This document shows, piece by piece, positions 7,039-28,755 of a stretch of 32,000 nucleotides of DNA. This DNA is from an uncultured Fibrobacter sp. (lineage in GTDB: Bacteria > Fibrobacterota > Fibrobacteria > Fibrobacterales > Fibrobacteraceae). Below the pieces are notes generated by a model that saw nothing but the letters and a program-made list of their open reading frames with translations, did not search any database and was not told where the DNA came from. Each line of letters starts with the position of its first letter. Positions within the stretch are counted from its first letter, which is position 1. The DNA is taken from positions 34,167 through 66,166 of the forward strand of contig CAKUTF010000002.1 in the NCBI GenBank assembly GCA_934691725.1, written 5' to 3'. The translations under genes and the position numbers were made by a program.

Positions 7039-7041
7039 AGA

Positions 7042-7101
7042 ATGAGAAAATAGAAATAATTTGATTGAACGATGAGAAAATAGAAATAATTTGATTGAAC
7101 G
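7042..7101. repeat. perfect tandem duplication, 2 x 30 bp
   Basis: atgagaaaatagaaataatttgattgaacg occurs at 7042-7071 and again at 7072-7101. The repeat starts 4 nt upstream of the ATG (7038, minus strand) of the hydrolase gene. Confidence 0.97.
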
Positions 7102-7108
7102 TAAAGAT

Positions 7109-7155
7109 GTCGCGGATTATCATCGTCAAATAAACCCGTTCGCGGCAAAAAACAG
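7109..7155 (-). repeat. right copy of the ~50-nt inverted repeat (partner at 2122-2171)
   Basis: See the 2122-2171 entry. The orientation is inverted, so both copies read inward toward the hydrolase-lipoprotein operon. Confidence 0.9.
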
Positions 7156-7156
7156 C

Positions 7157-7188
7157 AAAAAAAAATCTCCGGGAAACGAATCCCGGGA
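7157..7188 (-). terminator. intrinsic terminator (minus strand)
   Basis: The minus strand reads TCCCGGGA-TTCGTT-TCCCGGAGA followed by nine T (plus-strand A-run 7157-7165). The stem is 6-7 bp and GC-rich. Confidence 0.55.
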
Positions 7189-7236
7189 ACAGCCAAGTTT
7201 CTAGCTTGTTGTTTCCAACCACGAAAAGGACAAGCG

Positions 7237-7447
7237 ATGAGACTCGACCGATATCTAAGATACCAAATTAAAGCCTTGCTGGATGCCGGGCATTCGCAGA
7301 AAAACGTCGCATGTCTTCCACCATTCGTGGGAATGTGGGGCGAACGAGAGCATGAACTGGCTGACACGGCAATATCTGCCGAAAGGGACGTCCTTTAGGG
7401 ACCTGACCAGGGATTCCATCGCAACCTGTCTCTGCAAAAAATGCTAG
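7237..7447 (+). pseudogene. IS30-family transposase relic (HTH N-terminus fused to C-terminal tail, catalytic core missing)
   Basis: The frame from ATG 7237 gives MRLDRYLRYQIKALLDAGHSQKNVA, which resembles an IS30 HTH. A second frame from 7343 gives NESMNWLTRQYLPKGTSFRDLTRDSIA, resembling the IS30 C-terminal ENTNGLLRQYFPKGTD motif. Only ~210 nt remain, frames are broken, and no DDE region is present. Both comparisons are from memory. Confidence 0.5.
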
Positions 7448-7522
7448 CCAATCATTGGTTTTCAGAGAATAGACACCTTTTTTACCATTTCACAGTGCGC
7501 AAATTTGAATTTTTCCCCATAT

Positions 7523-7548
7523 AAAAAGACCTCCGCATCGCAGAGGCC
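7523..7548 (-). terminator. intrinsic terminator after the 146-aa gene
   Basis: Minus strand GGCCTCTGC-GAT-GCGGAGGTC (9 bp with two G.U) followed by TTTTTAT. It lies 25 nt after the stop codon. Confidence 0.55.
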
Positions 7549-7572
7549 TCTAAGGAGAAAGAATTTTCAGGA

Positions 7573-15719: not shown

Positions 15720-15813
15720 AAAAATTCTCCAAGAAGAAACCTTTCGGAGAAAAAATACACATAAAAAAAGAAAAGCGTTAGGCTACCTGGAAAATTCGCC
15801 CGATATTTGTTAT

Positions 15814-16080
15814 TAGTTGAGAGGATGGAATCAGTGGTCAATTAGCAATGAGTAATTAGGAGTGAGGAATTGGCTGTTTAGCGAGCCGGTGTCAGAGGTC
15901 AGCGACTAGCGAACAGTTAGGGAACAGGGAGTGGGAATTAGATTGCTGAGCGAACTGTTGCTAGAGCTTAGAGCTGAGATTTTAGAGCTTAGCAAATAGT
16001 TGATAGTGGACAGGAATCAGGACTCAGTGGTCAGAGCCTAGTTGATAGTGGATAGTTGAAAGAAAATAGGACTCAAAAAA
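15814..16080 (+). repeat. heptanucleotide NAG-N4 periodic array, sense on plus strand
   Basis: There are 19 in-phase 7-mers from 15948 to 16080, and 17 of them begin NAG (for example tagagct tagagct gagattt tagagct tagcaaa tagttga tagtgga caggaat caggact cagtggt cagagcc tagttga tagtgga tagttga). Earlier blocks use the same unit with 1-4 nt phase slips. By hand count there are 17 TAG triplets. The plus strand is strongly C-poor. No ORF is present. Confidence 0.9.
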
Positions 16081-16201
16081 GGCTCGCTCCGCGACCAATT
16101 CCTCATTCCTCATTTTCTTACCCGTCCGCGAAATATTCCCTCATCCCTAGTCCCCAAGAGCTTAAACGTCCACGGTTCTAAGCTCTCAGTTCTATCGACT
16201 A
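16081..16201 (-). repeat. heptanucleotide NAG-N4 array plus conserved core, sense on minus strand
   Basis: The minus strand, read from the TAG stop of the GGGPS-like gene, gives: tagtcga tagaact gagagct tagaacc gtggacg tttaagc tcttggg ... tagggat gagggaa ... gaggaat gaggaat tggtcgc g gagcgag cc. The plus strand here is G-poor, so composition flips at 16080/16081. Confidence 0.8.
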
Positions 16202-16957
16202 AGCTCTGACATGGATGGCATTCGCAAATTCGCGGAGAAGCCCCGGATCCTTCACTTTTTCCCAAAGCGTTCCTGTCACAATAATCTGCGCACCGGCGGA
16301 AACACGCACGGAAGCCGCTTCGGGTTCCCGGATTCCTCCCCCGGTGATAATCGTCATCTGTGTTGCCTTTCGCGTATAGGCGATATGCTCTACCGGAACC
16401 GGCGTCTCGGCACCGGAGCCTGCTTCAAGATAGACGTAACGCATTCCCATCAACTCCGCGGCGACAGAATGCACCATCGAGAGCTTCGGCTTGTTCGACG
16501 GAACGGGCATCGTGTTGCTGATATATTCCACGGCTGTGCGTTTTCCGCTGCTGATAAGCTCGTATGCCGTCGGAATCGCTTCGATGCCTAGAGACCTCAC
16601 CAGAACGCCTCCGCGGACCTGTTCGTCAATCAGATAGTTCGGGTTGCGGCCCGTCACAAGCGTCGTAAAAAGAATCGCGTCAAAGCCGGGAACCACCTGG
16701 GACGCTCCGCCCGGAAAGAGGATAACCGGAAGCGGGACCTCCTTTTTCAGTGCCAAAACCTGGGACGGAAGCTTGAAATTTCCCATGAACGATCCACCGA
16801 CGAGAAGCACATCCGCTCCGTTTTCGGCAGCAAGCGTTCCCGCTTTGAGGAGGGACGTGTCGTCCGATGTGTCGGGGTCGAGCAGCACGGCGAACAACGC
16901 GCCGCGCCTTTCGATAGCCTCGTTCAAGGCGGTTTCGGTCTTACCTATTTTAAGCAT
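16199..16957 (-). CDS. geranylgeranylglyceryl phosphate synthase family protein (GGGPS/PcrB family prenyltransferase)
   Basis: 252 aa, counting from the internal ATG at 16957 (MLKIGKTE...). Family blocks present: LLDPD, GADVLLVGGS, PVILFPGG, DAILFTTLVTGRNPNYLI, YVYLEAGSGAETPVP, IITGGGIR, IIVTGT. The 73-codon upstream extension in the ORF track is Arg/Ser/Cys-rich and overlaps the preceding gene, so I reject it. Confidence 0.87.
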   Translation of the reverse strand: MLKIGKTETALNEAIERRGALFAVLLDPDTSDDTSLLKAGTLAAENGADVLLVGGSFMGNFKLPSQVLALKKEVPLPVILFPGGASQVVPGFDAILFTTLVTGRNPNYLIDEQVRGGVLVRSLGIEAIPTAYELISSGKRTAVEYISNTMPVPSNKPKLSMVHSVAAELMGMRYVYLEAGSGAETPVPVEHIAYTRKATQMTIITGGGIREPEAASVRVSAGAQIIVTGTLWEKVKDPGLLREFANAIHVRA

Positions 16958-16985: not shown

Positions 16986-19900
16986 TTACTTGCTCTTTTT
17001 ACGGCGAACGCCCCATTTGTCGCGCATCTCTTCCTGCACTTTCTTCTGCTTGTAGCGCACGACCAGTTTGAACTCGACGATATACACGCCGGAACCGACC
17101 AGGCGCCCCGAATGGTCCTTGTAGTTCCAGTTGACGAAGACTTTCTTATCCGTCGTGAGGCAGTTTCTTCCCGCACCGAATGCCGGGCTGTTGCACGGAA
17201 TGTTGAATGTCGTATCCGTCACGTATTGTCCTAGGTTGTCAAAGTAGCTCACGCTGAAATTCACGAAGACGTCACCCGGGTCGATGCTATCGAGGACAGC
17301 CGCATCGTAATTTCCGTCCGCATCGAGTTTCGCACCGTCAATGAGCTGGGGAACAAAGCGTTCGCCGAGAGAAATCAGATGCCCGAGCGTTCCTTCGTCG
17401 CGAAGGTCCGAAGTCCGCGTCTGGTTCGGCACGTAGGAAATGGAAACCGAGTTCAGCGTACTGGTGATGTATTTTTCCGGATCATAGGATCCCATCTTGA
17501 CGGATTCCACCAGCTTTCCGAGAAGCCCGCCGATAACCACGGGAGATGCGTTTTCAACCGTCTTGTTGCCGTAGATATCCGCAATGGAAGATTTTTCTCC
17601 GCGAACGACCAGGAGAGAATCCCCGGGCACGATGCCGTCCGTCGATTCGCGCAGCACAAGGCGCACCGACTTGCCGTCTGCCGCCCAGAGCATCCGGGAA
17701 GGCCGAATATCAATCGTATCGTTTCCATGGATGTAGGCGAAGAAGTCGTTTCCGACAAGCGAAGAATAATCGACCGGTTCAGAGAACGAAACCGTGAGCG
17801 TATCGCGGGAATCGCCGTAGCGGAGCGAAGCCGCCGTGACAACCGGAGCCATCTTGTCCGCAATTGCGATTGTCTGCTGCGCAACAAAGGTGTTCCCGAA
17901 AATATCGTAGTAGGTGTAGAGCGTTGCCGCAGGAACATTCGAACCGATGCTAGTCAAGCCCGGAGCGACATTGACATTGCTTCGGACCACCCATCCGACG
18001 CTCTTCCCGTCCGCGCCCAGAATCAGGTCGCGCGGCTGCGCCTGGAGTTCGATCAAAAGCCCACGGGAACTATACCACGGGAACGAGAAGTAGAAGTTTT
18101 CAACGTCTTCCGCCGTCACCTTCGAAGAGAACCTAACCGCAACGGAATCGAGCTTGCCGTCACCGTCCGTATCGTAATACTCGACCATTTCCGCTGCCGG
18201 ATAGCGATCCGTCACTTTTACAGGGACCTGGCGTTCGTATTCCGAAGTCGCGATGTAGGAAAGATTGTGGAACGAAGCTCCCGGAGCGAGCGTCACAAAG
18301 TCCGTCCGTCCGTTGAGACCTAGCGAATCGCCAACCAGAATGATAAGATTTTTCGTCGGCAGGTAAATCTTGACCGCATCCAGGTCAAAGCCCATCGCAT
18401 TCAGCCACACGACCATCTCGGGACTGTTCAGGTCCGCAGGGATGACATCGATATTAAACTCGACGAAAAGCGAATCCCTGCCCGTCTTGTTACGAATCGC
18501 ATAGGCCTGCTTGATGACATGTGAGCCGAGGAGGAGGAGGTTCGTGCTGCGGTTATAGTTCGCACCGGTCTCTTCGCTCGTATAGGTCACGATAACCCGA
18601 GCGTTGTCCGGGAAGCGGTCCCCGGAAAGCCCGAGTTCCGCGGCGCTCGCATAGATTCTCGACCCGGATACGGTCAGCGCACCGGAAAGCGGAAGCGTGT
18701 CACCGTTTACGACCAGGGCAAGTCCCGTCGCCGAAAGCCCCGCGGGAACCGTATCGGAGAGAATCACTTCCAGGGAATCCAAAAGACCGTCATCGTCCGC
18801 ATCCTGGATGTAAGCGACTTCCGCCTTGGGAATCGGGTCGTAGAAATTGATGCCGTCAAAGATGATCAGATGACCGTCCTTGTCGGTAATGTAGATGCTT
18901 CCCACGAGAACTGTCGTGTCTGCGGAAACCCAGAACGACTGGTCCTTCCCGGTAACGCCGATGGAAATGTTCGACGCCGGCGCATCCGTATTGGAAGGAT
19001 CCTTGAAAATCAGCCCCGCGGAACCGGAGATGTAGAGCGAATCCGCATCGCCGAAGTAATCGCGAATCTTATCCGCATCGAGCTTGATTTCGATAACATC
19101 GCCGACACTGACCGATTCGCGTCCGCTAGCAGGAATCGAATCGGAGCCGTAGCTAGGCAGATCCGTCGATTGGGAATTGCCTCCAGTCACATAGGTGTTC
19201 CCGTTGATGATAACCGTTCCCGGAACAGAGGAATCCGCAGGAATCGGGATAAGCTTGGAACCGCCGATGATAAGGGTATCTCCCTTGTCGCGCTTGTCGT
19301 TTGTCGGGTAGAGGTCCGAACCGTCCTGGTTTTCCGAACCTTCTTCGCCAAATCCTTCATAGACCGTGGTGTCCGTAACCCAAGGCGGAATCCATTCGTC
19401 TCCGCCACCCTTTACCGAGCTGGAGGAATTGTTACCTGTGCCGCTCGAAGAGCCCGGATTTTCCCCGCCAGCGGAACTCGAAGAATTGCCGCTACCACCG
19501 CCATTCGAAGAACTCGAACCGGCGTCTCCCGAACCGGAAGAGTTGCCCGCACCGCTCGAAGAGCCCGGATTTTCCCCGCCAGCGGAACTCGAAGAATTGC
19601 CGCTACCGCCGCCATTCGAAGAACTCGAATTCTTGCCGTCATTGCTGGAGGAGCTTAGGTCGGAATTCCCCGAACTTGAAGATTTAGACCCCGAGCCGCC
19701 GATTGAACTGGAAGATTTACCCGAACTCGAAGATTCATGGAAAACGTTTGCGCTGGACGAGCTTCTGGAACTCGAAGAAACCAGCGTCCCCGGATTCGTC
19801 GTCGCCGAGTGGCGGTTGGAACCCGCCCCGGCAATCGGAGCGAGGTCATCCAGATAGTTATCAATCCACTGAACATGCAGGAGGATGTTGTTATCGATCA

Positions 19901-27846: not shown

Positions 27847-27994
27847 TTTTCCCCTGCGGATTCAGGCGTTCCGAAAGGCTGAAGGTCAAAGCTTTCAGAA
27901 CTTGTTTTCATGTATGTCGGAGCATAGCTCGACAAGCTCGCTAGCCTGTCATTATCGGACGAGATTCCCTTGTCAAGCAAGGGAATGACATCAT

Positions 27995-28078
27995 CCCGCT
28001 AAACGCTTCCCAAAAGTTTAAATGTCCACGGCTCTGACCACTGCTCACTGACCACTAGCCACTGAACCTAGACGTCTG
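27995..28078 (-). repeat. second heptad element with the conserved 28-nt core
   Basis: The minus strand reads: cagacgt c taggtt cagtggc tagtggt cagtgag cagtggt cagagcc gtggaca tttaaac ttttggg aagcgtt tagcggg. Five YAG heptads are in exact phase (28030-28064). The core at 28009-28036 matches 16153-16180 at 23 of 28 positions. Confidence 0.8.
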
Positions 28079-28101
28079 CGGTTTCTTATGAAGACATTCT
28101 C

Positions 28102-28755
28102 TCAGCCTTCCCTTTTAAACTTCGCATGTCCCGATTCAAAGGCGCGCCGAAGATTTTCCGTAGCGAGCTTCGGGTCTTTCGCCGACATGATTTCCGAAAC
28201 CACGGCAAGCCCGTCAACACCGGAAGCAGCGACATCTTCGGCATTCGACAGATGGATTCCCCCGATAGCGACCAGCGGATGCCGCGAAAGGGACGCCGCC
28301 TTCCGAAGCCCTTCCGGTCCTAGTCCCTCTGCGGCATCGAGCTTTGTCGTCGTCGCAAAAGCCTGGAACGCGACATAATCTACATCGTAATCGTTCGCCG
28401 CGACAAGTTCCTCGTAGTTATCCGTCGAAAGCCCGATGATTTTATCCTTTCCGAGCAAGCGTCTCGCAACCGGATACGGCAAATCGCTCTGCCCGATGTG
28501 AAGACCGTCCGCATCGACAGCGAGCGCGATGTCTAGCCTGTCGTTGATGATAAGCGGCACGCCCGTTCCCGACAGCGTTTTTTTTAACTTCAAGGCAAGC
28601 TCGTAAAATTCGAGCGAAGAACACTCCTTTTCGCGGAGCTGGACAATGCCCACGCCACCGCGGAGCGATTCTTCCACGACCCTTTCAATCGGACGACCGA
28701 GCGAAAGTCCACGATCCGTTACCAGATAAACGTTAAGGTATTCCTTTGCGTCCAT
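28102..28755 (-). CDS. thiE: thiamine-phosphate synthase
   Basis: 217 aa. ThiE blocks: VYLVTD, IVQLREKE, LIINDRLDIALAVDADGLHIGQSDLP, PLVAIGGI, GVDGLAVVSEI. SD AAGGAG sits 5 nt upstream of the ATG. Confidence 0.92.
   Translation of the reverse strand: MDAKEYLNVYLVTDRGLSLGRPIERVVEESLRGGVGIVQLREKECSSLEFYELALKLKKTLSGTGVPLIINDRLDIALAVDADGLHIGQSDLPYPVARRLLGKDKIIGLSTDNYEELVAANDYDVDYVAFQAFATTTKLDAAEGLGPEGLRKAASLSRHPLVAIGGIHLSNAEDVAASGVDGLAVVSEIMSAKDPKLATENLRRAFESGHAKFKREG

Follow-up and report, generated by a model that had tools for sequence, protein, structure and literature searches.

Introduction

REPs are imperfect palindromes of 20-40 nt that carry a GTAG or CGTC tag and have an associated RAYT transposase. 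In Nostoc punctiforme, blocks of 21-27 nt (SDR1-8) are said to have been found inside tandem heptamer repeats; they reportedly occur in many near-identical copies and are polymorphic between strains, and SDR4-6 reportedly have flanking inverted repeats. To our knowledge, very small mobile repeats are known only from cyanobacteria. An insertion of SDR5 is also mentioned in PMC4390886.

Heptanucleotide repeats are the commonest long simple repeats in most bacterial genomes according to Mrazek et al. (2007), as cited in PMC4679880. In the heptamers of Xanthomonas and Nostoc, the G-rich strand is the coding strand where the repeats lie 0-50 bp from a stop codon or overlap it, or the non-coding strand where they lie upstream of an ORF (Rehm et al., 2015; PMC4692102). 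Such repeats differ greatly from one close relative to the next, are for the most part transcribed in Xanthomonas and have no function known in the literature, and those of GGGNATC type form G4 structures in vitro (PMC4692102). Mixed heptamer arrays were described in Cyanobacteria and Bacteroidetes, with indels in 7-nt increments and with shorter, repeat-free spacers in relatives (MacGregor, 2015; PMC4679880).

Here we analyse a stretch of 32,000 nt (the window) in which two intergenic spacers carry similar short blocks, designated cores A and B. The best explanation of the data is that these cores are copies of one 21-47-nt block that lies in hypervariable NNNNYAG arrays of one uncultured species of the FCB group, a distant relative of Fibrobacter.

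Results

The two cores and their heptad register

Core A, the subject of this work, occupies positions 28009-28036 and reads CAGAGCCGTGGACATTTAAACTTTTGGG on the minus strand (28036->28009), and core B occupies positions 16153-16180 and reads TAGAACCGTGGACGTTTAAGCTCTTGGG on the same strand (16180->16153). When both were re-read from the window, their identity at 23 of 28 positions and their common heptad register were found as originally predicted, and the layout of the heptads bore out the in-phase YAG units 5' of both cores and the GGGATGA(T/G)G-like stretch 3' of them (GGGATGATG and GGGATGAGG). Core A is preceded by an in-phase run of NNNNYAG heptads (28034-28082, minus strand), namely ACCGCAG, ACGTCTA, GGTTCAG, TGGCTAG, TGGTCAG, TGAGCAG and TGGTCAG, all of which end in AG except ACGTCTA (6/7), and the five heptads before core B all do so. 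In the heptad frame, core A consists of three non-YAG heptads, AGCCGTG GACATTT AAACTTT (28013-28033), with YAG heptads in the same phase on either side; the core proper is thus of 21 nt, or of 28 nt with its flanks, embedded in the arrays. The phase of the array is kept at copy A and is not kept 3' of copy B. Two full copies of the core, 82% identical, were found in the ~47 kb available from the host species, besides degenerate ones.

The exact 14-mer CAGTGGTCAGAGCC that had also been noted on the plus strand at 16025-16038 is present there and is identical to positions 28030-28043 of the minus strand, which shows that both arrays have a heptad vocabulary in common, in inverted orientation.

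The genes upstream of the cores are thiE (PF02581) for core A and a gene of the PcrB/GGGPS family (PF01884) for core B. The former stands alone on the minus strand, facing a convergent thiL-thiN fusion, and the latter is the last in a minus-strand unit of four genes, followed by a spacer of 479 nt and then by another minus-strand operon. Both cores do lie just 3' of a stop codon, as had been pointed out, starting at 65 nt from that of thiE and at 18 nt from that of PcrB.

The spacer downstream of thiE

Spacer A (27847-28101) contains seven in-phase heptads, after which come the core with its three non-YAG heptads, a further pair of YAG heptads and two hairpins; the array begins ~20 nt past the thiE stop codon. 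Most of it is taken up by a species-specific block on the minus strand (27904-28101), of ~198 nt in the window and of 212, ~286 and 316 nt in other strains, for which none of the sister lineages yielded a homolog. This block is bounded by the thiE stop codon on one side and by the remnant of an ancestral convergent terminator hairpin on the other, and CTGA lies at either end of the block. The closest sister (contig L108, 805-850) has an 11-bp bidirectional thiE/thiLN hairpin that includes the thiE stop codon (GGAAGGTTGAA...TTCAACCTTCC), and the terminator-like hairpin that follows thiL-thiN in the window (27879-27898, plus strand) corresponds by homology to the upper part of the bidirectional hairpin found in sister species. 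The block splits the ancestral thiE/thiLN terminator hairpin (27868-27903 and 28102-28112 of the window, compared with L108).

The other hairpin of spacer A is a two-level one downstream of the core (27948-27989, minus strand), with an inner stem formed by ATTCCCTTG and CAAGGGAAT. In strain contig L005 (10880-10925), its three top pairs and loop are swapped, with GTA CTCCGA TAC in the place of TTG CTTGA CAA and with complementarity fully retained; this replacement may have come about by a template switch or by conversion, or else through selection for the stem.

The spacer downstream of PcrB

Spacer B (15720-16198) contains two oppositely oriented arrays that converge on an A/T run. The right one (16085-16208, minus strand; 124 nt) is in the YAG sense, has its G-rich heptads on the coding strand and contains core B. 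It begins within the last three codons of PcrB and supplies a new TAG stop at 16199-16201, and the C-terminus of PcrB (16199-16215, minus strand), which is IHVKG* in all the sister species, is IHVRA* in the window. The heptad array has overwritten the last PcrB codons and provides the stop codon of the gene. The left array (15801-16075, plus strand) consists of ~275 nt of NNNNYAG heptads; its G-rich strand is the plus strand, which is here the non-coding one, and it lies ~80 nt upstream of the gene of the next minus-strand operon. Where these arrays meet, a weak GC hairpin (GGUCGCGGAGCGAGCC) is followed by U6 (16075-16096, minus strand), and this could possibly be the terminator of the PcrB operon, though the terminator scan made no call there.

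The arrays of both spacers have stop codons in all six frames, and no ORF of meaningful length was found across the cores or the arrays. Tandem Repeats Finder (TRF) reported rows of period 7 with 68-89% matches and low scores, and the lag-7 autocorrelation in the arrays reached 0.56-0.63 against a background of 0.25. The units are mostly unlike one another, YAG alone being conserved, and the near-identical units of a true simple-sequence repeat were not found; the arrays are better described as a degenerate heptad mosaic than as a simple-sequence repeat.

Sister lineages have the same genes without the arrays

Sister lineages were ranked by a lineage-specific protein of 892 aa, with identities of 92, 90, 89, 87, 87, 79, 73 and 65% and lower ones following; a match of 39% identity is named Fibrobacter sp. 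The gene order is kept in all eight sister lineages, with spacers of 9-61 nt after thiE and of 52-250 nt after PcrB. Neither an in-phase heptad array nor a core-like sequence was found in the ~160 kb from these eight lineages, and no proto-core was found in their spacers. The sister sequences cease to align with the window at the borders of 15801-16208 and ~27898-28098. Because the eight sisters have neither array nor core and the alignments break at the array edges, the arrays and the core are recent gains of one species and not conserved signals of thiE or PcrB. Past PcrB, the sisters share with the window the ~90 nt that precede the next operon, which are therefore its real promoter and leader.

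In the sister of 89% identity, which has the PcrB spacer of 250 nt, a C-rich heptad-like stretch (CTCAAAC TACTGAC TCCTGTT; L096-L098, 17582-17630) marginally resembles part of the left array of spacer B. Its score in L096 was 14 against a null maximum of 13, and it could be a proto-array or a case of parallel origin. In the sister of 73% identity (L099/L100, 7411-7421), there is no thiL-thiN fusion gene, and thiE is followed after 9 nt by a convergent cyclase-like gene.

The arrays are hypervariable between strains

Strain contigs were recognised by identical thiE or ABC-ATPase proteins; over 12-21 kb, their identity to the window is 98.6-100%. Four alleles of spacer A were found among six contigs, and two length alleles of spacer B among five full-length contigs, with differences in spacer length of +14, +76, +118 and about +88 nt. 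The 14 nt gained in L006 are an exact duplication of two heptads in the run 5' of core A. L089 differs by +14 nt and by +76 nt, and its 76-nt piece has an 18-nt direct repeat on either side, with one mismatch (TCTCAGCTCTAAG[C/T]TCTA). L003 has an insertion of 118 nt with only 1 nt of microhomology at the junction. L005 has three indels (39, 12 and 38 nt), a rearranged core and a second copy that resembles the core (CAGACGTCTAAGCTTTGG); in addition, four substitutions are clustered there within 10 nt, as they are in L003. The density of substitutions was 2.4-5.9% in spacer A compared to 0.6-1.3% in the flanks, and short assemblies break within spacer B. The repeats of the spacers are hypervariable between strains.

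Two further repeats were detected elsewhere in the window. A 111-nt (37-aa) tandem repeat lies within a 1332-aa protein of unknown function (19425-19629, minus strand), with units 92.6% identical, and strain L004 has one 111-nt unit fewer (1295 aa). A perfect 30-nt tandem duplication (ATGAGAAAATAGAAATAATTTGATTGAACG x2; 7042-7101) lies at the start codon of an 1181-aa gene, with its first bases upstream of the ATG. It shares its spacer (7039-7572, 534 nt) with a C-terminal remnant of an IS30-family transposase (~7310-7440, plus strand; NF033563, E 1.6e-8), a fragment below the cut-off of the family.

Origin of the arrays and of the shared block

The likeliest mechanism, to which we give rather better than even chances, is slippage combined with ectopic recombination or gene conversion between the arrays, the core itself being functionless. 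One species gained arrays right where thiE and PcrB end, and replication slippage would lengthen and shorten them in 7-nt steps, with larger deletions, insertions and multi-base replacements altering them as well. Blocks of the core type would be copied from array to array by ectopic recombination or gene conversion, in a direction and by a mechanism that we infer, as we do the slippage, and the core would have no role of its own in the expression of thiE or PcrB. As side effects, the arrays lengthen the 3' UTR, introduce stops in six frames, replace the C-terminus of PcrB and separate the arms of the ancestral hairpin. Retention of YAG in phase among diverged heptads is not predicted by slippage plus neutral drift, and hints at a constraint or at a biased generating process.

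Copies of the core in strain-specific insertions and searches elsewhere

It is conceivable, although unlikely, that the core is instead a very small mobile repeat similar to the SDRs, with an insertion mechanism of its own, and that it may seed arrays. Such mobility would agree with the core-like copies that lie within strain-specific insertions (that of 118 nt in L003 and the second copy in L005) and with a core proper of exactly three heptads that keeps the phase of the array at copy A. The SDRs of Nostoc would provide a precedent by analogy, and the remnant of the IS30 transposase, unrelated in sequence to the core, indicates past mobile DNA in the region. However, the insertions of L003 and L005 that carry core-like copies have ragged ends and no target duplication, and neither common boundaries nor terminal inverted repeats nor a target-site duplication unite the copies as a whole. 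The single nucleotide of microhomology at the L003 junction and the loss of phase after copy B also speak against insertion of a defined element, as do the identities of 80-85% between copies, which are thus not near-identical, and the presence of only two full copies in ~47 kb.

Searches outside the host species add to these objections. The core pattern had no match in 185,579 species genomes, a collection from which the host lineage is absent (best AsnRS identity 59%), and this result only shows that the block is not widespread. No match to the core was found in viral contigs, and the only copies that a four-copy nhmmer profile recovered from all the 1.9 Mb fetched were those in the two spacers and in the alleles of these. 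In JGI metagenomes, AGARCCGTGGACRTTTAARYT had no matches and GTGGACRTTTAARCTYTTGGG matched five orthologous contigs (L109, 6099-6121; L110-L113). The matching 23-mer of core A (GTGGACATTTAAACTTTTGGGAA) is there the reverse complement of a mutS leader plus ATG TCC AC. These contigs have 41-46% GC and no heptads, and the only named relative of their MutS is that of a Gemmataceae bacterium, at 61%. This match was rejected as a coincidence in an unrelated organism, ~2 chance matches being estimated on the assumption of ~1e12 searched positions.

RNA structure and termination at the cores

Slippage and copying between arrays, which remain our preferred reading, leave the core without a function, whereas the original prediction had proposed a 3'-UTR, termination or processing signal. 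We regard as quite improbable that the core acts in RNA as such a 3'-UTR signal, be it a terminator, a stabiliser, a processing site or a protein-binding site. The position of both cores near the stop codon of the upstream gene and on its strand would suit a signal of this kind, as would the transcription of most heptamer repeats in Xanthomonas (PMC4692102). A further point in its favour is a hairpin formed by the 3' half of core B and the heptads that precede it (16154-16189, minus strand; GAGAGCUUAGA/UUUAAGCUCUU), which with two preceding heptads folds at -15.2 kcal/mol, z -3.4 compared to shuffled sequences; a structure stronger than the shuffled ones counts against a functionless core.

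This hairpin has no equivalent at copy A, whose fold (-2.9 kcal/mol) is worse than those of its shuffles, nor does the L005 allele of core A fold into a hairpin like that of core B, so that the two copies have no common fold. In three of the five strains (contigs), an SNP breaks a pair of the copy B stem by creating a U-U mismatch, and in L005 the core is rearranged. Moreover, both orthologous sites are empty in the eight sisters, which have short spacers, with a plain hairpin in the closest one. Taken together, these observations do not support the role proposed for the core, be it in the 3' UTR, in termination or in processing.

The core does not resemble a terminator or a known RNA either. 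The terminator scan gave no terminator-like site at either core, the copy B hairpin lacking a U-tract, and only two tRNAs matched Rfam at the gathering threshold. Permissive Rfam scans of both spacers gave nothing but a match to the fluoride riboswitch (E 0.78), which was treated as chance.

Relatedness of the two cores

The resemblance of A and B might also be a matter of chance, aided by the heptad vocabulary that the arrays share. As far as the bare match is concerned, this has some basis: with a threshold of 23 identical positions, dinucleotide-shuffled windows gave 0.33 direct pairs of 28-mers each, and the real window contains three dispersed pairs of this kind, the core pair and two others (23-24/28) in coding DNA. 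The 23/28 match alone is near chance for a 32-kb window and is not significant, because of this frequency in shuffled windows and of the two further pairs. The exact match of 23 nt to the unrelated mutS leader in JGI contigs likewise illustrates what chance can produce. An expectation of zero for the degenerate core pattern was discarded as circular, since the pattern had been derived from both copies.

Nevertheless, we consider chance a very improbable explanation of the core pair. The core has no YAG signature, so the heptad grammar does not explain its recurrence, and still the two copies have the same strand, phase and position at both sites. In-phase arrays of AG heptads occur only in these two spacers (three sub-arrays) in ~47 kb of the host species, compared to 0-1 per shuffle. 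The similarity between A and B extends to 28/34, and the L005 allele of copy A matches copy B at 40 of 47 nt, including GGGACTAGGGATGAG (blastn-short, E ~1e-6 in a 2.5-kb database). In addition, the 118-nt insertion of L003 contains a further core copy, of 35 nt and 80% identical to B. Because both cores lie in the only two arrays, in the same strand and phase, and because of the 28/34 extension, the 40/47 allele and the L003 copy, cores A and B are related, a conclusion that draws on context, extension and strain alleles together.

A possible degenerate third copy (AAACCGCAGACGTCTAGGTTC; 28064-28084, minus strand), 17 nt past the thiE stop and matching B at 15 of 21 positions, was found post hoc and is a weak candidate, its first 10 nt also matching the ancestral spacer of the closest sister.

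The dispersed, modular family that had been proposed for the core therefore stands in part: as a modular repeat family it is supported, because the block is found in two heptad arrays and, in degenerate copies, in strain-specific insertions, and as a signal of gene ends it is not.

Finally, an action of the arrays, core included, at the level of DNA, as G-quadruplexes, bent DNA or protein-binding platforms, has the slimmest prospects of all, for despite GGG-containing heptads 3' of the core (GGGGACTAGGGATGAGGG) and, by analogy, the G4 structures of GGGNATC heptamers in vitro (PMC4692102), inspection of the bases 3' of both cores did not reveal four G3 tracts in succession with short loops between them, a G3 tract is missing from most heptads and the elements are absent in the sister species.

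Discussion

The following features of heptameric arrays are found at this locus: a tandem period of 7 nt, an intergenic position that follows the strand rule, and polymorphism between strains in 7-nt steps together with absence in relatives. With regard to position, the right array of spacer B overlaps the PcrB stop, that of spacer A lies ~20 nt past the thiE stop, and the left array of spacer B is on the non-coding strand upstream of a gene. At gene ends, arrays of heptamers are a widespread feature of bacteria. Heptad arrays were also found in ~7 of 80 unrelated AsnRS loci (1.23 Mb), with units such as TAGTCAG, TTGTCAG, TTGGCAG, CCGTCAG, CTATGAG and others, and in loci of Latescibacterota, Kryptoniota and Gemmatimonadales the arrays begin 0-30 nt past stop codons. 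As arrays past stop codons are both published and present in unrelated phyla, the location immediately downstream of a gene and on its strand characterises the class as a whole and not the core. That distant phyla follow the same rule of position and strand could be due to a function or to some targeted process. Among the sites seen in these unrelated loci are L010 13742-13785, L066 3189-3281, where the stop codon lies within the first heptad, and L068 6157-6193, 8377-8413 and 11348-11405.

We hold it doubtful that the core is a tiny block of 21-47 nt, self-propagating or gene-converting, that rides in stop-codon-anchored arrays or seeds them in a Fibrobacter-related lineage. If it were so, very small mobile repeats would gain a second example, phylogenetically independent of the first and caught in a recent burst, and a self-propagating block could expose the mechanism that builds heptamer arrays at gene ends. 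The locus reveals no new regulatory element, and its usefulness lies in the study of how heptad arrays arise: it allows a comparison of before and after, with eight syntenic relatives in which the sites are empty, one species in which they are filled and strains in which they are changing. To this, the shared core adds modest evidence for the movement of blocks between arrays.

With respect to known systems, REPs and the BIMEs of enterobacteria, and also REPINs, are similar to the elements described here in being short, modular, extragenic and mosaic, and often lie past stops or between convergent genes. Unlike them, copy A is not palindromic, the ends of the core show by inspection no GTAG or CGTC tag, and no RAYT-type transposase was called in the loci read; the core does not belong among the REPs or REPINs.

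The TAACTGA arrays of Beggiatoaceae, Cyanobacteria and Bacteroidetes are closer in grammar, since the reverse complement TTATCAG fits the NNNNYAG/CTRNNNN pattern found here (PMC4679880), even if no TAACTGA unit occurs in the arrays of this locus. They are also alike in their mixed arrays within long spacers, 7-nt indels, repeat-free relatives and assembly breaks (PMC4679880). Most BOGUAY repeats, in contrast, have the "forward" orientation and precede a start codon by a few nt (PMC4679880), whereas the arrays described here are at or after stops, with one upstream of a start.

The STRR of cyanobacteria and the GGGNATC or GGGGA(C/T)T repeats of Xanthomonas and Nostoc have in common with our arrays the period of 7 nt, the intergenic site, the strand asymmetry and the variability. 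They differ in that nearly every unit is distinct here, with YAG alone kept, in that a non-heptad block is common to the arrays, and in the host, which is here an uncultured bacterium of the FCB group.

For the core, the closest analogue is that of the Nostoc SDRs, since both are short blocks (21-27 nt) within heptamer arrays, dispersed and polymorphic between strains. Whereas the SDRs reportedly have many near-identical copies, the core has two full copies (82%) in ~47 kb and no consistent inverted repeat, and its mobility is only hypothetical. The locus thus represents a known kind of element, the degenerate heptameric intergenic repeat mosaic, with a new host and with a low-copy block shared between its arrays.
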